From assembly GCA_015063985.1 (NCBI GenBank), contig SVTC01000007.1, positions 35,477 through 99,476 on the forward strand: 64,000 nt of DNA, written 5' to 3'. This stretch comes from Oscillospiraceae bacterium. GTDB lineage: Bacteria; Bacillota; Clostridia; Oscillospirales; SIG627. This document shows positions 5,080 to 62,425 of the stretch, in pieces. The translations under genes were made by a program, and so were the position numbers. The stretch's first letter is position 1. Every line of letters starts with the position of its first letter. Under the pieces are notes generated by a model that saw nothing but the letters and a program-made list of their open reading frames with translations, searched no databases and had not been told where the DNA came from.

Positions 5080-5964
5080 TCATATAAGTGTTTTATTCAC
5101 AAACTCCACACTGTATGCGGTAATTTTTTCCTTTCTCAAGGCATCGCAACAGCTTTTTGCGCCAAGCTCATCGAAAAATACACCGAACACAGATGGGCCC
5201 GAGCCACTCATAACAGAGCATTTTGCGCCCATTGAAAGCATTTTTTCCTTCAAGATCGCAATCGCAGGCCTTTTGGGGATGCTTACCTGCTCCATAACGT
5301 TAAAAACGCTTTTACTCATCAGCTCCGGATCCCCATTCCTCAACGCCTCCACGCACTGAGAGGTCAAGGGGTGGCTCTCGTAGCTTTCAAGGGAATCGTA
5401 AAGACTGTACATCTGAGGTGTGGACAAGCCTGCAGTGTTTTTTGCTATTACCGCATAGGCGCAAAGCCTCGACTGAAAGCTCTCCATCACCTCGCCCCTG
5501 CCTCGGCATACGGCGGTACCGCCCACCGTGGTAAAGGCGACGTCCGAGCCTACCTTTGCCGATATTTTGCAAAGCTCGGCCTTGTCTCCCTTGGAGAAAT
5601 ATTTTGCCAGAAGCCTTATCACCGCACTTCCGTCGGCGCTTCCTCCTCCCAAGCCCGCACAAACGGGTATGTTCTTTGAAAGGTGGATATCAAAGCCTCT
5701 GTCCTCTATTCCAAAATAATCAAAATAGGCATTGGCTGCCTTTATGCAGATATTATCCCCATTCTTCGGAACAGAATTGCTTTCGGAGATCATCCTCAGC
5801 TCTCCGAAGGCGTTTTTTTCAATACCGACTCTGTCATACAAGCCCGTAAGCTGCATAAGGGATTCTATCTCGTGAAATCCGTCGTCCCTTTTTGAAAGGA
5901 TATCCAGAGTAAGGTTTATTTTTGCATATGCCTTTTCACTGAGCATCGTCGTCTTCTCCGTCAT
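5080..5964 (-). CDS. ispE: 4-diphosphocytidyl-2-C-methyl-D-erythritol kinase
   Basis: AKINLTLDI N-terminus and the GHMP kinase motif PVCAGLGGGSADGSA. The start may be the internal Met at 5946. Confidence 0.9.
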   Translation of the reverse strand: MTEKTTMLSEKAYAKINLTLDILSKRDDGFHEIESLMQLTGLYDRVGIEKNAFGELRMISESNSVPKNGDNICIKAANAYFDYFGIEDRGFDIHLSKNIPVCAGLGGGSADGSAVIRLLAKYFSKGDKAELCKISAKVGSDVAFTTVGGTAVCRGRGEVMESFQSRLCAYAVIAKNTAGLSTPQMYSLYDSLESYESHPLTSQCVEALRNGDPELMSKSVFNVMEQVSIPKRPAIAILKEKMLSMGAKCSVMSGSGPSVFGVFFDELGAKSCCDALRKEKITAYSVEFVNKTLI

Positions 5965-6697
5965 CCACCAGAGATCTTGGTCTTTTCTTCTCCTTGGGCT
6001 TCTCCTCAGCCTCAGGCTCCTTCTTTTCTCCGATGCGCTTTTCAGTGCCGTTCTTCAGCCTTAAGATATTGTCCTTATGCATTACGATAATAAACGCAGC
6101 TATTGCCACCGCAAACAAGGCGGTAGTGAAAAAGCTGTTGGCAGAGGTAAATTTAATGCTGATCAAAGGATACATAGCCGCGGCAGTGATGGATGCCACC
6201 GAAACGATCTTTGTGACCCAAAGCATAAGTCCCCACACCAAGGCAAGAAGCAAAAATACCACAGGATCAATTATAAGCACGGTTACCGCGGCAACCAGCA
6301 CACCCTTTCCGCCCTTGAAATTATAATAAAGTGGGAAAACGTGTCCGAATATGCAAAAGAAGCCTCCGAGATGAGCGCCGCCAAAGGCTCTTCCCACTAT
6401 CAAGGAGCTGATAAGCACCGCTATCAAAGCCTTCAAAACGTCTCCCAGCAGGGTCAGTATGCCCGCTTTTTTGCCAAAAACTCTGAACATATTGGTCATT
6501 CCCGCATTTTTTGAGCCGTAGCTTCTTATGTCCTTCTTATAAAGACCGCGGGAAACTATGATCGCGGTATTAACGCTTCCCAAAAGATAGCTCACTATAG
6601 AGGAAATGGTATATCCCACCAAAAGCATTGCTATAAAGCTTTCGCCTGCGCCGGCCTTGTATATCAAGCCTTCGTTAATCAGCTTAAGAAAAAGCAT
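5936..6697 (-). CDS. plsY: glycerol-3-phosphate acyltransferase PlsY with a charged C-terminal tail
   Basis: GSKNAGMTN and FKGGKGV motifs with multiple TM helices. The unusual Lys/Glu/Asp-rich C-terminus overlaps the ispE start. Confidence 0.9.
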   Translation of the reverse strand: MLFLKLINEGLIYKAGAGESFIAMLLVGYTISSIVSYLLGSVNTAIIVSRGLYKKDIRSYGSKNAGMTNMFRVFGKKAGILTLLGDVLKALIAVLISSLIVGRAFGGAHLGGFFCIFGHVFPLYYNFKGGKGVLVAAVTVLIIDPVVFLLLALVWGLMLWVTKIVSVASITAAAMYPLISIKFTSANSFFTTALFAVAIAAFIIVMHKDNILRLKNGTEKRIGEKKEPEAEEKPKEKKRPRSLVDDGEDDDAQ

Positions 6698-16247: not shown

Positions 16248-16360
16248 CAGAGGTTTTCCACATATGTGGAAAACCTCTGTGGAAAAGTTATTGTAAACCA
16301 AAATCCCTTTTTTATACTCTTTTATCGACTTTTTTCTCAGATGCTTAAAGTTATGTAAAC
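16248..16360. repeat. copy 1 of a dispersed repeat: 32-bp perfect palindrome, GTTATTGTAAACC box and TATGTAAAC box
   Basis: CAGAGGTTTTCCACATATGTGGAAAACCTCTG (16248-16279) is a perfect palindrome. The 47-nt core at 16253-16299 matches 17764-17810 at 41/47 positions. The second box, TATGTAAAC, is at 16352-16360. Confidence 0.85.
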
Positions 16361-17763: not shown

Positions 17764-17871
17764 GTTTTCCACACCTGGGGAAAACTCCTGTGAAAAAGTT
17801 ATTGTAAACCTCGAAAACTCCTTTTTCGGGCTTTTAAGCCATTATTTTCTCCGATAAAAAAATATGTAAAC
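17764..17871. repeat. copy 2 of the 16248-16360 repeat
   Basis: GTTTTCCACACCTGGGGAAAACTCCTGTGAAAAAGTTATTGTAAACC (17764-17810) and TATGTAAAC (17863-17871). The two boxes sit at the same 53-nt offset as in copy 1. Confidence 0.85.
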
Positions 17872-34029: not shown

Positions 34030-34106
34030 TTTACATAACATTGTTTACATTAGTATTATGTAAATCATTAAATTTACATAAGTTATAATATCTGTATTTA
34101 TGTAAA
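34030..34106. repeat. cluster of TTTACATAA / TTATGTAAA boxes
   Basis: TTTACATAA at 34030-38 and 34073-81, TTTACAT at 34044-50, and TTATGTAAA at 34056-64 and 34098-106. Confidence 0.8.
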
Positions 34107-34120
34107 CAATTTTCAAGAAT

Positions 34121-34506
34121 AAAGGAAGGCTTTTTAGCGTAGTGCCCTTAAGGACACTACGCGTCGATATAGATCCGCTTGCGCGGATCTTCGATATACG
34201 CTGACACGTTCGATATGATGTTTGCTACGCAAACACTCGATATGCTCACCGCGTGAGCGCGGATCTATATCATATCAAGCTTGAGTGTAGCGAAAGCATA
34301 TCGAATTTGCCGCAAGGCAAATATATCGAGCCGAGCGAAGCGACGGCATATCGACAAATAGCATCTGTGGACACAGATGCAGTGCTTGCAAAGAAAAGAG
34401 GACAGAGAGTGTAAAAACATTCTCTGTCCTCTTCCTGTCGGTGGGTGCTATTTCTATTGAATCTAAAACTATCCTTAAGAGTACGTCTCTTTAGAGTCTT
34501 CCTTTT
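34121..34506 (-). repeat. hairpin-ladder element, copy A (TIR-bounded; orientation given relative to copy B)
   Basis: AAAGGAAGGC (34121-30) pairs with GTCTTCCTTT (34496-505). Inside, TCGATAT occurs 4 times and then ATATCGA 3 times, interleaved with perfect hairpins without spare nucleotides. A terminator-like hairpin is at 34398-34431. Confidence 0.85.
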
Positions 34507-34517
34507 TACACCATTAA

Positions 34518-34550
34518 GTTTACATAACACACCAAATTCCAAGTTATGTA
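34518..34550. repeat. TTTACATAA-N16-TTATGTA inverted repeat
   Basis: GTTTACATAA at 34518-27 and TTATGTA at 34544-50. Confidence 0.75.
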
Positions 34551-34562
34551 TTTGTGACCCTA

Positions 34563-34734
34563 AACACCATCGAGCACTGTATTTGCGTGAACTATGTCGT
34601 CATTGAAGGTTTTTTGCCTACTTTTTTTCAAAGCTCACGTCCCTATCAGTACTAATATGACCTTCGAGCACTGTGTTTGTACTGACTTTACCGACATTGA
34701 AAGTTTTTTGCCTACTTTTTTTCAAAAAAGTAGG
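34563..34734 (-). repeat. stop-codon-abutting hairpin plus two tandem units of about 94 bp (locus A)
   Basis: The palindromic hairpin CCTAC T7 C A6 GTAGG (34711-34734) starts at the nucleotide after the TAA of the oxidoreductase gene. The unit core is GCAAAAAAC..TTCAATGTCG..AACACAGTGCTCGA. Confidence 0.85.
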
Positions 34735-35772
34735 TTATGCTTTGGGATATTTGATCTTAACGGGCATACCGGTCTTGGTGGACTCAACGGTAGCGGTGCA
34801 GACAGCCACGGTGCTTGCGCCCTCAAGACTGCTTACGGGGAGGGGAGTGTTGTTAACAAGGGCGTTGACAAAGGCATCGATTTCCGCGGTAATATTGTGG
34901 TTGTTGATCTCGATGGGTATCTCCTTGCCCTTGGTGAAGCTGCTTTTGCCGTTTTCCAGAGGACCGACGTCTTCAAAGAGCGTCATTGTGGGAGAGGTGT
35001 TGTCGCAGATTATGGTACCGTTGGTGCCGTAGAAAACACTTCTCATTGTGTAATCTCTCTTGCATCCGATGGAGGTGAACACCTTACCTGCAACGTTGTT
35101 GGGGAACTTGTAGATGGCAACTGCACAGTCGTCTGTGGGCCAGGTCGTGAGACACTTGTGGTTAGCAATGGCATATACCTCGCCGGGGTTGCCCGCGATC
35201 CATCTGAGAAGATCAACTGCGTGGCATCCGCCGCCGATAAAGCCGTGTCTTTCGGGTGTTACTCTCCAATCGTCCACACCTCTTGCCTTGGCATAGCTGT
35301 GAGCGTATTCGCTTTCAACAAAGAAAAGCTCGCCGATCTTGCCCTCCTCGATGAGCTTCTTTGCCTGCAAAAAGGCGGGGGTGCAACGGCATACCTGACC
35401 GATCATAAGTCTTCTGCCGGACTCCTTTTCGGCATCGATCATTCTCTGACACTGCTCCATATCAAGAGCCATAGGCTTTTCGCAAAGAACGTCCTTGCCG
35501 GCTCTGAGGAATGCTTCGGTCATTTCCAGATGGTACTGGTCGGGTGTAACGATAACCGCCGCATCAACCTTGGGATCGTTTACAAATTCTCTGTAATCGG
35601 TCACCGCCTTTTCAACGTCAGGGAAGCCCTCAAGCCTCTTTTTGAGAATGTCCTCGTGCTTGTCGCATATTCCGTAAAGCTTTGCGCCTTCCTTTGCAAC
35701 AACTCCGTCCATGTGACGTCTTGCCATATCACTGCATCCGATAACTACAATGTTTAAAACTTTATTTTCCAT
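34735..35772 (-). CDS. Gfo/Idh/MocA-family NAD(P)-dependent oxidoreductase
   Basis: N-terminal Rossmann motif (NIVVIGCSDMARRH) and the EKPM motif (CEKPMAL). 345 aa. Confidence 0.85.
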   Translation of the reverse strand: MENKVLNIVVIGCSDMARRHMDGVVAKEGAKLYGICDKHEDILKKRLEGFPDVEKAVTDYREFVNDPKVDAAVIVTPDQYHLEMTEAFLRAGKDVLCEKPMALDMEQCQRMIDAEKESGRRLMIGQVCRCTPAFLQAKKLIEEGKIGELFFVESEYAHSYAKARGVDDWRVTPERHGFIGGGCHAVDLLRWIAGNPGEVYAIANHKCLTTWPTDDCAVAIYKFPNNVAGKVFTSIGCKRDYTMRSVFYGTNGTIICDNTSPTMTLFEDVGPLENGKSSFTKGKEIPIEINNHNITAEIDAFVNALVNNTPLPVSSLEGASTVAVCTATVESTKTGMPVKIKYPKA

Positions 35773-36810: not shown

Positions 36811-37085
36811 TATGTAAACCAAAAGCTTTCGAGCACTGTGTTTGCATTGATGTGATCGACATTGAAAGTTTTTGCCTGCTTTTTTTCAAAACTCACGTCC
36901 CTATCAGCGCTAATATGACCTTCAAGCACTGTGTTTGCACTGACTTTACCGACGTTGAAGGTTTTTTGCCTGCTTTTTTCAAAACTTCCATTAAAGTTGG
37001 CACTGATATCGCCATCGAGCACTGTGTTTGTGCTGACTCTGTCGACATTGAAAGTTTTTTGCCTACTTTTTTTCAAAAAAGTAGG
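36811..37085 (-). repeat. stop-codon-abutting hairpin plus three 93-bp tandem units ending in GGTTTACATAA (locus C); open in frame with the upstream gene
   Basis: The hairpin at 37062-37085 starts right after TGA (37086-88). GCACTGTG recurs at 36833, 36926 and 37019, giving a 93-nt period. The minus-strand frame is open for 91 codons up to the TAA inside the TTTACATAA box. Confidence 0.85.
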
Positions 37086-49840: not shown

Positions 49841-50018
49841 CACACCTTTTTGAAAAAAGGTGTGCCAAAAACTTTTATTGTCGATAAAGTCAGCATAAAC
49901 AAAGCAATCGATGGTTTTCTCGGCCCGAAACCATACTTTCCTTTTTGAAAAAAGGTGTGCCAAATACCTTTATTGTCGATAAAGTCAGTGCACACGGTAC
50001 TCTATTCATTTATTTACA
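49841..50018 (+). repeat. stop-codon-abutting hairpin plus two tandem units of about 95 bp (locus D), variant hairpin sequence
   Basis: CACACC T5 G A6 GGTGTG (49841-49864) starts right after TAA (49838-40). The conserved core is CCAAAAACTTTTATTGTCGATAAAGTCAG, and the array ends near TTTACA at 50013-18. Confidence 0.8.
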
Positions 50019-55743: not shown

Positions 55744-55778
55744 TTTACATAATTTGCCGCATTATAATATTATGTAAA
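55744..55778. repeat. TTTACATAA-N17-TTATGTAAA inverted repeat in a convergent intergenic region
   Basis: TTTACATAA at 55744-52 and TTATGTAAA at 55770-78. Confidence 0.8.
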
Positions 55779-59564: not shown

Positions 59565-60260
59565 ATGTACAACTCAAAGCTCAAAGCCCTCACCTTCAGC
59601 TTTGATGACGGCGTCACTCAGGATCAACGTCTTATCAAGCTATTGGACAAATATCACCTGCGCTCCACCTTCAACATAAATTCCGCAAGGCTGGATCAGG
59701 CCAAGATCCTCCTCGTAGGCGACGTGACGGTCAGCCACTGCAAGCCCCGTCCCTGCGAGATCAAGGCGATCTACCAAAACCACGAGGTGGCAGGCCACAC
59801 CCTCAGCCACCCCTGTCTGACCACCCGCAGTGACGACGAAATAGTCCGCGAGGTGGAGCAGGACCGTCTTGCTCTCTCCCAACTCTGCCAATACGAGGTG
59901 GTAGGCTTTGCCTATCCCGGAGGCTCCCAATACGTGGACGACAGAGTCATAAGCGCCGTAAGGACCCGCACCGGTGTTAAATACGCACGCAACGCCTGCA
60001 CCTCCGGCAGCTTCGATCCGCCCACCGATCTTTTCAACGTGATCCCCACCGCCTCCTTTCTTGACGGCAATATTTTGGAGCTTGCAAAAGAGTTTATCGC
60101 CATCTCTCCCCATTCCCCCAAGCTATTCTTCATCTACGGACACGCCTACGAGCCCGACGGCTACTCCGACGGCTGGGAAAGAGTGGAAAAACTCTTCTCT
60201 CTCATCTCGCACAAGGATGACGTCTTCTACGGCACCAACAAAGAATGCCTACTTTTTTGA
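59565..60260 (+). CDS. polysaccharide deacetylase (CE4 / NodB-homology domain)
   Basis: The LTFSFDDG and GHTLSHP motifs. The last 13 nt, including the TGA, lie inside the repeat hairpin at 60248-60271. Confidence 0.8.
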   Translation: MYNSKLKALTFSFDDGVTQDQRLIKLLDKYHLRSTFNINSARLDQAKILLVGDVTVSHCKPRPCEIKAIYQNHEVAGHTLSHPCLTTRSDDEIVREVEQDRLALSQLCQYEVVGFAYPGGSQYVDDRVISAVRTRTGVKYARNACTSGSFDPPTDLFNVIPTASFLDGNILELAKEFIAISPHSPKLFFIYGHAYEPDGYSDGWERVEKLFSLISHKDDVFYGTNKECLLF

Positions 60261-60506
60261 AAAAAAGTAGGCAAAAAACTTTTATTGTCGATAGACTCAG
60301 CACGAACACAGTGCTCGATGCTTTGCTTTTCGGGAACAACCCTTTTTAAAAGCAGGCAAAAAGCTTTTATTGTCGATGGAGTCGGCACGAACACAGTTCT
60401 CGATGCTTTGCTTTTCGGGAACAACCCTTTTTAAAAACAGGCAAAAAACTTTTATTGTCGATAGAGTCGGCACGAACACAGTGCTCAATGCTTTAACTTT
60501 ACATAA
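60248..60506 (+). repeat. hairpin plus three 85-bp tandem units ending in TTTACATAA (locus B)
   Basis: CCTAC T6 G A7 GTAGG is at 60248-60271. GGCAAAAA recurs at 60270, 60355 and 60440, giving an 85-nt period. TTTACATAA is at 60498-60506. Confidence 0.85.
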
Positions 60507-60545
60507 TTCGCATTTACAAATGTTATGTAGATCAAACAGAGCTAA

Positions 60546-60906
60546 AAAAGGAAGACCGACAAGAGGCACACTTCCTTACGGAGTGTGCCTCAATTTTCTT
60601 TTTATATAAAATTTGACACTTTCTGTTTGAAAGTGTCATAGTGGGTTACATACTTTGAAATATTACCTATCTCAAAGATAAAAATAATAAGTGATATTGT
60701 GAGACAGGTCTCACAGTGATATTTTTGATAAATCAAAAGTGATATTAAAACCTTGCGGTTTTAGTGATATTTTATTCGCCCCTAAACTCGCAAAGCGAAT
60801 AACACTCGGCTATAGCCGAATATAACTGCGAAGCAATACAACTCGCCTTTGGCGAATAAAACTGAGGCACACTTCCTTACGGAGTGTGCCTCAAGGTCTT
60901 CCTTTT
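60546..60906 (+). repeat. hairpin-ladder element, copy B (TIR-bounded)
   Basis: AAAAGGAAGACC (60546-57) pairs with GGTCTTCCTTTT (60895-906). An identical 31-nt hairpin unit occurs at 60563-93 and 60864-94. GTGATAT occurs 4 times and then ATAnnAC 4 times, interleaved with perfect hairpins. Confidence 0.85.
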
Positions 60907-60910
60907 GCTT

Positions 60911-62425
60911 TTAATAAATATTTATCGCGGATTCGTCCACCTTATCGAGAACAATGTCCACATCCTCGCGGCTTACCTTTTTTCCGTTGAGATAAAGCCC
61001 CTCTACAGTCACGCCGTCCATTCGGCTGGTGGGAATAAAGTTTTTCATCTTCACCTTGAGACATTTTGTTCCAAGCTTCTCAAGGATCTTCTCATCGCAA
61101 TAAACGAAAATATCCTTAAGCTTAATATCCGTCACTGACGCATAGCGCTCATCACCCAAGGTGATCTTACTCTTGGATTCCCCAAGATTAAGAAAAGCAT
61201 AGCTTTCGCGGAAGCGCTTATTCCTGATACTGAGAACACCGGCAACCTCCATCTCATCCTTATTCGAATACTTCCCATCATCGCTCTTCTGAAGCTGACA
61301 CCCGGTGTAGAAGCTTTCCAGCTCCAATCTGATATTTTCAAATCTGATATTCTTGACCCGAGCATAGTCACCGTTCTGAATATCGCAAGCGGTATTACCG
61401 CCTCTTAAAATATCGCAGTCGTAAAATACTATATCGTCGTACTCATCCGCCGATGTCTCCAGGCCTATCTCACAGGTCTTACCCCAATCGCACCAAAGCA
61501 CACAGCCCTCGATCCTTATCCTGCGATTATCGGTCCGGCAGTATCTGTCTATCCCCTTAACGGTTACGGTATCGTCAAAGGAATGGATAAAAGAACCCTT
61601 GATAAGCACGTCTTGGCAATTCACCACGTCTACACCGTCGGTATTATATCTCCACTGGCCGAATACGTTTATCCTATCCAGCAACACGTCTTTACAATGG
61701 AAAAGATTGATGCACCATATCGCAGAATTCATAAAGCCAACGCCCTCAACGCTGACATTACTGCAATCGTAAAGCTTAAAGTTGCCGTTTGCATACGGCT
61801 CATAGCAATGCTGAGAAAACCTTTCCTCACCGCTGTCATCAAATATTCCGTTTCCGAAAATGCGAATATTCTCGGCGTTTTCGGCATAAATGCATCCGTA
61901 TACCAATGCATCCTTATCCACGTACACGCTCTCGTTGGACTTCAGAGTGATCTTGCCGGGAAAATGCACTCCCCTTCCGAAATAATAGCTGACCTTCTCG
62001 GGCTCCTCGCAAACCACGGGCTTATTATTAAAGATGTATAAAAGGCCGTGATAATCGTCTATCTCCAGAACGTATGCGCCGTTTTCCTTCAAGGTGAACT
62101 TAAGCTTACCATCACGCTTCTCGGGTACTACCTTCTTGGAGTAAGGCTTTAGCATAACTCTGCCGTCAATACTCTTGGTCAAGGACTCTACCTCAAGCTC
62201 CACGTCCTCGTCGGAGACAAGATTTACGTAAGACACCTTACAGCTCTGCTCCACAGGCCTCTGAAAGCCCGGCCACCATCTGTTAAAGGGATAATCCGAT
62301 ATCCTGCAGGTATAAACGGGTATCCTTTCGCCACGTGCGTAAACTCTGTAATTCCCGGACTCCTCCACCTCAATGGGAAAAGCGGACAGCTTCCAATCGT
62401 GTTTAAATCGGGAATAAGAAAACAT
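60911..62425 (-). CDS. right-handed beta-helix glycoside hydrolase (GH28-like)
   Basis: The NTDGVD and SFDDTVTVKG motifs are characteristic of GH28/pectin-lyase-fold enzymes. 504 aa. Confidence 0.55.
   Translation of the reverse strand: MFSYSRFKHDWKLSAFPIEVEESGNYRVYARGERIPVYTCRISDYPFNRWWPGFQRPVEQSCKVSYVNLVSDEDVELEVESLTKSIDGRVMLKPYSKKVVPEKRDGKLKFTLKENGAYVLEIDDYHGLLYIFNNKPVVCEEPEKVSYYFGRGVHFPGKITLKSNESVYVDKDALVYGCIYAENAENIRIFGNGIFDDSGEERFSQHCYEPYANGNFKLYDCSNVSVEGVGFMNSAIWCINLFHCKDVLLDRINVFGQWRYNTDGVDVVNCQDVLIKGSFIHSFDDTVTVKGIDRYCRTDNRRIRIEGCVLWCDWGKTCEIGLETSADEYDDIVFYDCDILRGGNTACDIQNGDYARVKNIRFENIRLELESFYTGCQLQKSDDGKYSNKDEMEVAGVLSIRNKRFRESYAFLNLGESKSKITLGDERYASVTDIKLKDIFVYCDEKILEKLGTKCLKVKMKNFIPTSRMDGVTVEGLYLNGKKVSREDVDIVLDKVDESAINIY

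Follow-up and report, generated by a model that had tools for sequence, protein, structure and literature searches.

Element B occupies positions 60546-60906 of the 64-kb window (the whole stretch of DNA analysed here), between a deacetylase gene (59565-60260) and a GH28 gene on the minus strand (60911-62425). It is bounded by a 12-nt inverted-repeat pair, AAAAGGAAGACC/GGTCTTCCTTTT. One arm (60895-60906, minus strand), which forms the 5' end in family orientation, reads AAAAGGAAGACC on that strand and lies 5 nt downstream of the GH28 stop codon; the other (60546-60557) reads AAAAGGAAGACC on the plus strand. The 11-mer AAAGGAAGRCY had four exact matches in the window, and these were the four ends of element B and of its sister, element A (34121-34506), only. 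A palindrome, TTACATAA-N16-TTATGTA, was located ~14-17 nt outside the B repeat arm (60499-60529), and the same module lay equally far outside element A at each end. The inverted-repeat boundaries and the second copy, both reported in a preliminary description of this DNA, were confirmed, and the layout of the two elements was identical.

Read 5' to 3' on the minus strand, element B begins with the repeat arm and H0 (60864-60894), a 10-bp GC-rich hairpin followed by AGTTTTATT, which is terminator-like for the GH28 transcript. Next comes a core (60794-60864), whose first heptamer is 1 nt away from H0 and in which four AU-rich heptamers (GTTTTAT, GTTGTAT, GTTATAT, and GTGTTAT) alternate with three perfect hairpins of 5, 3, and 5 bp (TCGCC/GGCGA, TGC/GCA, and TCGGC/GCCGA) without a spare base. 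The apical hairpin H4 (60788-60798, minus strand, TCGC-ttt-GCGA) and segment X (60771-60787, GTTTAGGGGCGAATAAA on the minus strand) come next, and then the mirror half (60689-60775), in which four copies of ATATCAC, or GTGATAT on the plus strand, alternate with three more perfect hairpins. The element closes with an AU-rich spacer, a 10-bp hairpin (TGACACTTTC/GAAAGTGTCA, 60614-60638) followed on the minus strand by AATTTTATAT and terminator-like in family orientation, a second copy of H0 (60563-60593), and the other repeat arm. The two H0 copies form a 31-nt perfect direct repeat (hairpin GAGGCACACTTCCTTACGGAGTGTGCCTCAA, at 60563 and 60864) that had been missed before; the second copy, followed on the plus strand by AATTTTCTTTTT, is terminator-like for the deacetylase gene.

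The regularity of the ladder was far from random. GTGATAT starts at 60691, 60716, 60739, and 60764, and in-register triplets of this heptamer had an expectation of 0.00, being absent from 100 of 100 shuffles of the window. The gaps between heptamers are occupied end to end by perfect hairpins at 60698-715 (7 bp with a 4-nt loop), 60723-38 (6 bp), and 60746-63 (7 bp), and between the degenerate heptamers at 60806-19 (5 bp), 60827-35 (3 bp), and 60843-55 (5 bp, loop TTT). Shuffling each spacer gave P values of 1e-4 to 1e-2 per hairpin, with a product of ~1e-18. The degenerate heptamers, which read ATAACAC, ATATAAC, ATACAAC, and ATAAAAC on the plus strand, agreed with the reverse complement of GTGATAT at 6, 6, 5, and 5 of 7 positions, and all stems were Watson-Crick. 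On these points the preliminary description held, including the anatomy, the positions of the heptamers, and the lack of G-U pairs, with two corrections of detail: the stem at 60698-715 has 7 bp (8 bp would leave a 2-nt loop), and the loop at 60843-55 is TTT rather than TTTG.

Element A carries the same layout on the plus strand in family orientation: repeat arms at 34121-31 and 34495-505, H0 at 34137-62, a 5' half (34164-34258) with TCGATAT four times and hairpins H1-H4, an X segment (34259-71) pairing over 13 bp with 34166-78, and a 3' half (34272-34354) with ATATCAA, three copies of ATATCGA, and hairpins H5-H7. A and B share the inverted-repeat arm and the architecture, with no primary sequence alike beyond the ends, so that recent mobility in this genome is unsupported. 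They lie in opposite orientations within one replichore, GC skew being negative across the whole window, which disfavours a role specific to one replication strand. Strain SNPs in element A fell in loops or extended a stem.

Element B is related to the Gut-1 motif

The preliminary description knew of no family with this architecture. Both halves of element B nevertheless matched the full-length Gut-1 model of Rfam (RF01706, 77 nt), the core with 34.7 bits on the minus strand (E = 2e-5) and the mirror half with 30.8 bits on the plus strand (E = 2e-4), both below the gathering score of 50 bits. At gathering thresholds Rfam returned nothing in the window, and Gut-1 surfaced in E-value mode only; element A had no Rfam match. 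The minus strand of B was collinear with the Gut-1 seeds BAAZ01000095 and BAAZ01025322 from H0 through X to the last ATATCAC, with a mean column identity of 64%, and the alignment extended over flanks outside the Rfam model. These seed flanks contained a preceding hairpin, an H4 hairpin (UGCC-ugc-GGCA), an X segment, and a mirror half with four copies of ATATCAC; the hairpin preceding Gut-1 in BAAZ01000095 was near-identical to H0 of B. The Gut-1 ladder rule (four GUGAWAU-like heptamers, three short hairpins, no spare bases) was obeyed by B on both strands. A terminator-like H0 ahead of the ladder was present in B and in 3 of 5 seeds examined, and a terminator-like hairpin after it in B and one seed. 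The 2010 seed set also contained tandem copies 240 nt apart. Among the relatives, one (L179, 58.2 bits) scored above gathering and seven others scored 31-45 bits.

Gut-1 was described as a structured RNA motif with no function assigned, was known from the human gut only, and was judged to be an RNA unattached to mRNAs (Weinberg et al. 2010, PMC2864571); its Rfam type is 'Gene; sRNA'. From the match and its continuation into the flanks, element B is very probably a diverged member of this family. The family is dispersed and non-coding, and its repeats occur in Firmicutes of the gut and rumen and in the phages of these bacteria. In B the sense strand is the minus strand, co-directional with GH28. 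The features beyond the Rfam model are an optional mirror half, the X pairing, a leading terminator-like hairpin, and a near-absence of G·U pairs, and the full-length architecture is ~4 times the size of the model.

Folding, covariation, and base-pair composition

Element B folded far better than its shuffled controls on both strands (plus strand, z = -12; minus strand, z = -17). The fold proposed in the preliminary description, a fishbone in which the two sets of heptamers pair into stacked four-way junctions, fared differently among the elements. In B it reached -36.4 kcal/mol against a minimum free energy (MFE) of -54.0 kcal/mol as RNA, ~18 kcal/mol worse, and as DNA the deficit was 12 kcal/mol. 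Instead, the MFE fold of B contained the X pairing, an 11-bp helix between 60770-60780 (TTTTATTCGCC) and 60850-60860 (GGCGAATAAAA) in plus-strand bases, which had gone unnoticed and which on the minus strand joins X to heptamer 1 and the 5' arm of hairpin 1. In element A the fishbone was the MFE fold, and in several phage copies it was the MFE or near-MFE fold. The stacked four-way-junction fold thus fits the family (A and phage copies) as a model and does not fit B.

The hairpins of the ladder, which had been taken to be of unrelated sequence, proved to be homologous positions among relatives that diverge by paired changes. Across 18 elements, 476 Watson-Crick pairs were counted in stems of differing sequence, and all 8 predicted consensus pairs of H1 and H2 showed double changes. 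The heptamers of the two halves changed together (TCGATAT/ATATCGA, GCGATAT/ATATCGC, GTGAAAT/ATTTCAC, and GTnnTAT/ATATCAC), and in 11 of 11 elements X was complementary, element-specifically, to heptamer 1 and the 5' arm of hairpin 1. G·U pairs made up 2 of 478 (0.4%) in the ladders compared to 24 of 321 (7.5%) in terminator-like hairpins of the same loci, which were called heuristically (P = 2e-8). The few non-Watson-Crick pairs showed no strand asymmetry, with 2 G·T versus 3 C·A. The depletion of G·U raises doubt that selection acts on RNA. Heptamers were spaced 16-27 bp centre to centre, irregularly and as dictated by hairpin length, with no helical phasing, and the core between the four direct and four inverted heptamers measured 26-28 nt.

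Distribution of ladder relatives

Relatives of the ladder were found in the head modules of gut and rumen phages, between terminase and portal, between portal and Prp, and upstream or downstream of the major capsid gene; several copies adjoin terminase genes. A single phage carried three near-identical copies, at terL|portal, at portal|Prp, and after the capsid gene, and related phages had a copy present or absent at the same junction. Truncated copies exist, and homology between L456 and L483 stopped exactly after H4. Most copies, including all six half-only ones, were co-directional with transcription, and one phage copy ran directly into an RBS and start codon. The L437 phage copy has the orientation opposite to transcription, which counts against the REP/BIME-like reading discussed below. 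Heptamers varied inside one phage, with TCGATAT and GCGATAT in L264 and GTGAAGT and TCGATAT in L251. Ladders also lie behind stop codons, between convergent genes, and another bacterial chromosome contained a further linker variant.

Just upstream of terS, L251 carries a rolling-circle HUH Rep gene (PF23343, HHHLII motif) with a ladder on either side. Tblastn found this G2P-type Rep in that phage only, on a single contig, so a general association with the ladder was rejected, and the surroundings of A, B, and the remaining phage copies contained no HUH or transposase gene. Searches for further copies added little. AAAGGAAGRCY-N335-365-RGYCTTCCTTT in 185,579 genomes gave 21 matches, which is chance level, and the two Clostridiales matches examined were coding sequence. 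The TTACATAA palindrome together with AAGGAAG had 74 matches in metagenome contigs, none with a ladder, and blastn of B and one phage copy against GenBank phages returned no match. An apex scan (CGATAT-N22-TMTATCATATC) returned already-known copies only. For an empty-site comparison, the nearest GH28 homologues were of no use, being 66% identical and non-syntenic. Metagenome assemblers break within ladder elements.

Discussion

Gut-1 has been an orphan motif since 2010, known from human-gut reads alone, without host, context, or function. This window, together with the relatives, supplies a host context on a chromosome and a clear link to phage head-gene operons. We tentatively read element B as a REP/BIME-like dispersed repeat that acts single-stranded and whose transcribed form would be an exonuclease-blocking or processing module at gene 3' ends and between cistrons. 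The ladder would behave as an extragenic palindromic repeat that is gained, lost, truncated, and duplicated in intergenic gaps. Because its hairpins are perfectly Watson-Crick on both strands, the constraint or homogenising mechanism would act on DNA that folds when single-stranded. Once transcribed, which would be unavoidable within phage late operons and would happen to B by read-through as a 3' tail of GH28, the ladder would present its very stable mini-hairpins in a row and leave the AU-rich heptamers exposed. Such an RNA would form a barrier and processing module at a 3' end or between cistrons, and an endonuclease cutting in the linkers would release exonuclease-resistant products capped by hairpins. 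Globally, B would fold into the X helix and independent hairpins, and the two halves of A and of the phage copies could zip into stacked four-way junctions.

Several observations count against this REP/BIME-like reading. The terminator-like H0 ahead of the ladder would limit its transcription, and neither a target-site duplication nor a transposase was found. Nor does the stabiliser model account for the identity of the four heptamers within an element or for the conservation of X. Taken as a whole, family identity and proposed working together, our explanation is plausible at a level of confidence that stays below even.

The ladder might work purely as single-stranded or cruciform DNA, its RNA being incidental. 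It could form the ends or the core of a small mobile element, mobilised by an enzyme of the HUH type that recognises hairpins, or be a phage site for recombination, replication (single-strand origin), or packaging. The scarcity of G·U without strand asymmetry, the pseudo-dyad symmetry with a Gut-1 match on both strands of B, the bounding repeat arms, the homology breakpoint at the apex in L456/L483, the L251 Rep gene between ladders, and the copies next to terminase genes all agree with it. Ladders also contain many C-GNA-G triloops, which form very stable DNA mini-hairpins. However, enzyme genes of this type were missing beside A, B, and the other phage copies, the target duplication was absent, up to three copies occurred in one phage, which does not suit an ori, pac, or cos site present once, A and B were opposed within one replichore of uniform skew, and the orientation of most copies, with all six half-only ones, followed transcription. 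We consider a purely DNA-level role possible and rather unlikely. The wider proposal that Gut-1 itself is a DNA-level palindromic ladder element and not an RNA gene, common to gut Firmicutes and phages, is similarly doubtful. In that proposal the mini-hairpins, identical heptamers, and competing pairing of X with hairpin 1 would serve single-stranded DNA mobility, recombination, or priming. As an alternative that is equally doubtful, the two halves would zip into a rod of stacked, perfectly abutted four-way junctions, for which no natural precedent is known to have been described.

A free-standing sRNA with its own promoter and terminator appears improbable. Its exposed heptamers, four to eight in number and held between hairpins, would act by titrating an RNA-binding protein or by base-pairing to targets. 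Repeated identical single-stranded motifs are reminiscent of CsrB-type sponge RNAs, and the terminator-like hairpin behind the ladder in B (60614-38, minus strand) and in one seed would suit such a gene. The verdict of the 2010 authors (PMC2864571) favours it as well. But the single nucleotide between H0 and heptamer 1 leaves no promoter space, the phage copies are intercistronic, with one leading straight into an RBS, and an RNA gene would not usually be depleted of G·U. The heptamers also differ among copies of one phage (L264, L251), which makes a single protein partner unlikely.

The more specific model of the preliminary description, a plus-strand RNA starting at ~60649 from a TTGACA/TGTCATAGT promoter and folding as a fishbone, is very improbable for B. 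The hexamers match at 10 of 12 positions with a TG extension, one plus-strand half of B is Gut-1-like, and the fishbone is the MFE fold of element A. Yet the promoter hexamers TTGACA and CATAGT lie inside the 10-bp hairpin that is terminator-like on the minus strand, such matches occurred at chance (2 found versus 1.7 expected), the seeds align with B on the minus strand, and the fishbone pays its 18 kcal/mol in B. The same description had left the strand and the choice between DNA and RNA undecided, a reserve that was upheld.

Least probable, to the point of being barely tenable, is a double-stranded protein-binding array of the iteron, centromere, or pac type, in which a core would lie among four direct and four inverted heptamers. 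P1 pac has 4+3 hexamers, the 4+4 arrangement about a 26-28-nt core resembles it, and some copies lie near terminase or Rep genes; against this stand the irregular spacing without iteron- or pac-type phasing, spacers constrained as hairpins, for which a duplex site has no need, the unlike heptamers between copies in one phage, and the several copies per genome. Further candidates were rejected: a retron ncRNA (no reverse transcriptase nearby), a CRISPR array (repeats of 7 nt versus 23-50 nt, and palindromic 'spacers'), a tRNA-like RNA or riboswitch (unsupported by Rfam and ARAGORN), type III antitoxin repeats (units non-identical), and a unique phage pac, cos, or ori site (a phage can have up to three copies).

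The near-lack of G·U thus gives a statistical ground to doubt RNA-level selection on Gut-1, and the alternatives for Gut-1 (an RNA module, a mobile DNA repeat, or the two combined) can now be put to the test.

Comparison with known systems

The ladder shares features with several known systems. It resembles MITEs (Correia/NEMIS, ERIC, BOX, and RUP) in its size (150-400 bp), its place between genes, its terminal inverted repeats (12 nt), its pieces of terminator or promoter, and a probable co-transcription with neighbouring genes. Unlike them, it showed no target-site duplication, with no direct repeat in the flanks of B (GAGCTAA/GCTTTTA) or of A (TCAAGAAT/TTACACC), no set of near-identical copies or transposase (A and B in the window and the pattern scan of 185,579 genomes), and a layout without counterpart among MITEs. 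PeSL cassettes of T4-type phages are mobile regulatory units with an early promoter and one stem-loop. They too are short repeats containing a stem-loop in phage intergenic gaps, vary in presence among relatives, and mark mosaic borders, yet neither a heptamer ladder nor a mirror half is known from them. Single-strand origins and the Ff intergenic region of rolling-circle replicons, functional only in single-stranded DNA, resemble the ladder in their rows of hairpins and in adjoining an HUH Rep, as in L251. The other ladder copies lack an adjacent Rep, several copies occur per genome, and ladders showed neither a recognisable conserved nick site nor a CS-6-type motif.

REP/BIMEs of enterobacteria stabilise mRNA 3' ends and are thought to spread as single-stranded hairpins. 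Like the ladder, they are mosaics of hairpins and short conserved linkers, vary in copy content, and are confined to gene 3' ends, convergent-gene gaps, and intercistronic gaps. In REP the hairpin is conserved and carries a GTAG tag read by RAYT transposases, whereas in the ladder the linkers are conserved and the hairpins vary freely; no RAYT-like gene was found, the only HUH gene being the G2P-type Rep of L251.

The closest relative remains Gut-1. Element B differs from it in its scores (34.7 and 30.8 versus 50 bits), in the degenerate heptamers of its sense strand (GTTnTAT), and in its place on a bacterial chromosomal contig, and the published description of Gut-1 is without the mirror half, X pairing, inverted-repeat arms, phage location, and G·U depletion. 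What unites the two is the location behind stop codons and between convergent genes, and the ladder itself, built from four GUGAAAU-like heptamers in exact alternation with three short hairpins that vary in sequence.

Anatomy and neighbourhood of element B

The window (46.7% GC) comes from a bacterial chromosome, and its genes include uvrB, AraC-type regulators, and glycoside hydrolases; its GC skew was negative throughout, so the window lies within one replichore. Element B (60546-60906) was located between two convergent genes: a polysaccharide deacetylase gene on the plus strand (59565-60260) and, on the minus strand, a GH28-family gene (60911-62425) with its stop codon only 5 nt away. The preliminary description of this hairpin ladder was borne out in every detail, its hairpins included, except one loop, which is TTT instead of TTTG, and one stem length. 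It had overlooked a GC-rich hairpin that recurs as a perfect 31-nt direct repeat (60563 and 60864) and an 11-bp pairing of 60770-80 with 60850-60. At least three in-register GTGATAT copies were never obtained in shuffles, the six inter-heptamer spacers of B were end-to-end perfect hairpins (joint shuffle probability ~1e-18), and both strands folded 12-17 standard deviations better than shuffles. The second copy claimed earlier proved to be a sister element, A (34121-34506), with the same inverted-repeat ends: AAAGGAAGRCY, taken from the 12-nt inverted repeat, had only four exact matches in the window, which were the ends of B and A. Element B is a real and statistically solid finding.

A and B form part of a mosaic that also includes two other families of repeats. 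Four genes had tandem arrays of two to three 85-93-nt units starting at their stop codons (34567-34740, 36826-37085, 49845-49995, and 60252-60517), all oriented alike with respect to the gene upstream. Every unit opened with a terminator-like palindrome such as TGCCTACTTTTTTTCAAAAAAGTAGGCA, and the arrays beside A and B were mutually inverted. Palindromes of the form TTACATAA-N15/16-TTATGTA were found eight times versus zero expected, including those at 34031-34063, 34074-34105, 34520-34550, 55745-55777, and 60499-60529. One was solitary between convergent genes, and three lay ~14-17 nt outside the inverted-repeat arms of A or B, so that they may be part of the elements or mark insertion sites. 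Elsewhere in the window, a 47-nt intergenic segment containing the palindrome GTTTTCCACAnnTGTGGAAAAC occurred twice, 1.5 kb apart (16253-16299 and 17764-17810), and looks like an operator.

Contigs carrying the genes that flank the elements came from the same strain. B was unchanged in them, with one fewer 85-nt unit in the upstream tandem array of one contig (L009), and A differed by three SNPs, two in loops and the third adding a base pair to a 3-bp stem. Ten assemblies broke inside B; of ten independent metagenome assemblies with the GH28 gene (L001-L010), nine stopped 72-273 nt into it. Short-read assembly is broken by its hairpin ladder and 31-nt repeat. IMG/VR also lists the B locus, together with the adjoining glycoside-hydrolase genes, among its viral contigs (IMGVR_UViG_3300018495_002688, 1478-1555; contig of 4.2 kb), probably a misclassification.

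Relationship to the Gut-1 RNA motif

Two pattern scans of genome and metagenome collections returned chance-level matches only. Scanning IMG/VR for three in-register TCGATAT or GTGATAT copies, followed by a ladder-detector filter, recovered true relatives. In an E-value scan of Rfam, every half-ladder matched RF01706 (Gut-1 RNA), and element A had no Rfam match. One phage contig (L179) scored 58.2 bits, over the 50-bit cut-off, seven other copies scored 31-45 bits, and B scored 34.7 bits on its minus strand and 30.8 bits on its plus strand, under that cut-off. The 2010 report of Gut-1 drew on 43 human-gut metagenome sequences and judged it a non-cis-regulatory RNA, with no function assigned (PMC2864571); no later paper in the literature collection searched refers to it.

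The flanks of the published Gut-1 seed alignment had the same full layout as the minus strand of B. They began with a GC-rich hairpin, GAGGCGCACUccgaaaggaAGUGCGCCUC, a predicted terminator whose counterpart in B is GAGGCACACUccguaaggaAGUGUGCCUC, continued with four heptamers and hairpins, the apical hairpin H4, and a segment containing GGCGAAUAUAA, and ended with four AUAUCAC copies with hairpins. The minus strand of B aligned collinearly with two Gut-1 seeds over ~240 nt. Given the RF01706 matches, the shared layout, and this alignment, the earlier statement that no such family had been described was wrong. B is very probably a sub-threshold, diverged member of the Gut-1 family; it is not a new class but a new diverged member of a known orphan family. 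Element A, with TCGATAT linkers, is a more distant variant linked to the family via the phage copies: it shares the H6 stem ATTTGCC/GGCAAAT and the apex layout with one of them (L264-2). The finding is valuable for its chromosomal and phage settings, for the architecture seen over the full length, and for the doubt that it casts on the "RNA gene" label.

Full-length architecture

Parsing 18 elements gave a common layout: a leading terminator-like hairpin (H0), four heptamer-hairpin units, a segment X, three units of complementary heptamer and hairpin, and a final complementary heptamer. Heptamers were near-identical inside one element and varied among elements (GTGAAAT, GTGAAGT, GTGATAT, GCGATAT, and TCGATAT). 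The second-half heptamers were always the reverse complement of the first-half ones at 5-7 of 7 positions, and the two halves thus covary. The 3' half is optional, being missing in L407-1, L407-2, L179, L251b, and L456. X follows H4 and precedes the fifth heptamer; heptamers 4 and 5 are 26-28 nt apart. In 11/11 elements, 7-13 nt of X were complementary to a stretch comprising the 3' part of heptamer 1 and the 5' arm of hairpin 1, and at least five unrelated sequence versions of X were seen. X is thus a conserved alternative partner of hairpin 1. For A, L264-2, L251, and L483, the stacked four-way junctions (fishbone) proposed earlier were either the MFE fold or only a few kcal/mol above it. 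For B the proposal failed: the fishbone lies 18 kcal/mol above the MFE fold for RNA and 12 kcal/mol above it for DNA, and the MFE fold is the X helix with free-standing hairpins.

Phage and chromosomal contexts

The IMG/VR relatives were located in phage head modules (gene calls by PHROGs and Pfam). L264 carried two ladders, one in the large terminase/portal gap and one ahead of the major head gene. L407 carried three near-identical copies, H0 included: after terL (5' half only), in the portal/Prp protease gap (5' half and X, running directly into the RBS), and after the capsid gene. L408 and L270 had one copy ahead of the capsid gene, L179 had half-ladders at portal/Prp and Prp/next gene, and L437 had one copy upstream of terL, inverted relative to transcription. 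In L251 and L364, two ladders surrounded a rolling-circle HUH Rep gene directly upstream of terS and terL. Outside this head-module group, L456 and L483 had a copy that followed a tRNA-like 3' end and its terminator.

The Rep of L251 (237 aa, PF23343, HHHLII motif) lay between ladders at 5142-5310 and 6071-6138 (identical in L364) whose heptamers differ, being GTGAAGT in the upstream ladder and TCGATAT in the downstream one; rolling-circle replication together with tailed-phage packaging genes is an unusual mix. At L456 9650-9900 and L483 250-520 (reverse strand), the tRNA-like end (GGTTCGAGTCCAACAGGGGGAGCCA), not called by ARAGORN, preceded a strong terminator and the ladder, with three tRNA genes nearby on the opposite strand; the site may be an integration junction. 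A second intergenic module in the same phages (L407 8793-8945 and 10200-10420; L408 3380-3560; L437 5250-5420) consisted of short tandem repeats (e.g. CAGTTGA/CACAGTT, AATTAAAAATT, and CTATCTG) in inverted blocks around a small hairpin and promoter-like hexamers. A neighbouring species carries a chromosomal variant of the ladder (L551, 900-1100): CATCATT x3, a centre, and AATGATG x3 come after a gene terminator, and the perfect hairpins have C-TTC-G loops. This variant shows that the architecture reaches past Gut-1-type heptamers.

At the same junction, the ladder was present in some related phages and absent in others. Portal and Prp, which overlap in L264, have a ladder between them in L407 and L179; the terL/portal gap held a ladder in L264 and L407 and a different repeat module in L408. 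L407-3 had lost one hairpin unit via deletion between similar arms, L456 and L483 were homologous through H4 and unrelated beyond, and the 2010 seed set includes tandem copies 240 nt apart. For A and B, no target duplication, transposase, or near-identical copies were found in the window.

RNA versus DNA constraint and possible mechanism

Tentatively, and with less than even confidence, we read the element as a REP/BIME-like dispersed palindromic repeat acting single-stranded. An RNA level is supported by strong covariation, with double changes at each of the eight consensus pairs in H1 and H2, and by the co-orientation of nearly all copies with the upstream gene; the phage copies must be transcribed, because one directly precedes an RBS. 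Against a purely RNA-level constraint, many loops were C-GNA-G triloops, H0 with the U-rich first heptamer resembles a terminator ahead of the ladder (in B and 3/5 seeds read), and the L437 copy was inverted. Moreover, the ladder stems contained 476 Watson-Crick pairs, 2 G·T, and 3 C·A, versus 297 Watson-Crick and 24 G·U pairs (7.5%) in terminator-like hairpins of the same loci (Fisher P = 2e-8), and the alignment held only one one-sided change. The stems are thus kept complementary on both strands, which points to single-stranded DNA folding or template-switch homogenisation. Alternatively, an element between convergent genes could have to fold whichever side it is transcribed from.

The strongest rival, rated slightly below the REP/BIME-like reading, is a purely DNA-level element, which the scarcity of G·U pairs favours. 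A and B are oppositely oriented in one replichore, each co-directional with its own upstream gene, which speaks for the RNA level and against a function specific to one replication strand. A free-standing sRNA or protein sponge is improbable; so few G·U pairs would be unusual for an RNA gene. The plus-strand fishbone RNA of the preliminary description, which the MFE fold of A favours and the energy cost in B opposes, is very improbable. An array of protein sites in duplex DNA fits the inverted arrangement of the heptamers but would not require hairpin spacers, and is hardly credible.

As a REP/BIME-like repeat at the DNA level, the element would maintain its hairpins and be duplicated, truncated, and exchanged among intergenic gaps of phages and hosts. 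X and the mirror half are left unexplained by this mechanism; they may serve as a conformational switch or zip the element into a compact rod. As RNA, it would form a row of very stable mini-hairpins with AU-rich heptamers between them, which would block exonucleases, offer endonuclease sites, and insulate adjacent cistrons, in the manner of E. coli REP elements and T7 RNase III sites.
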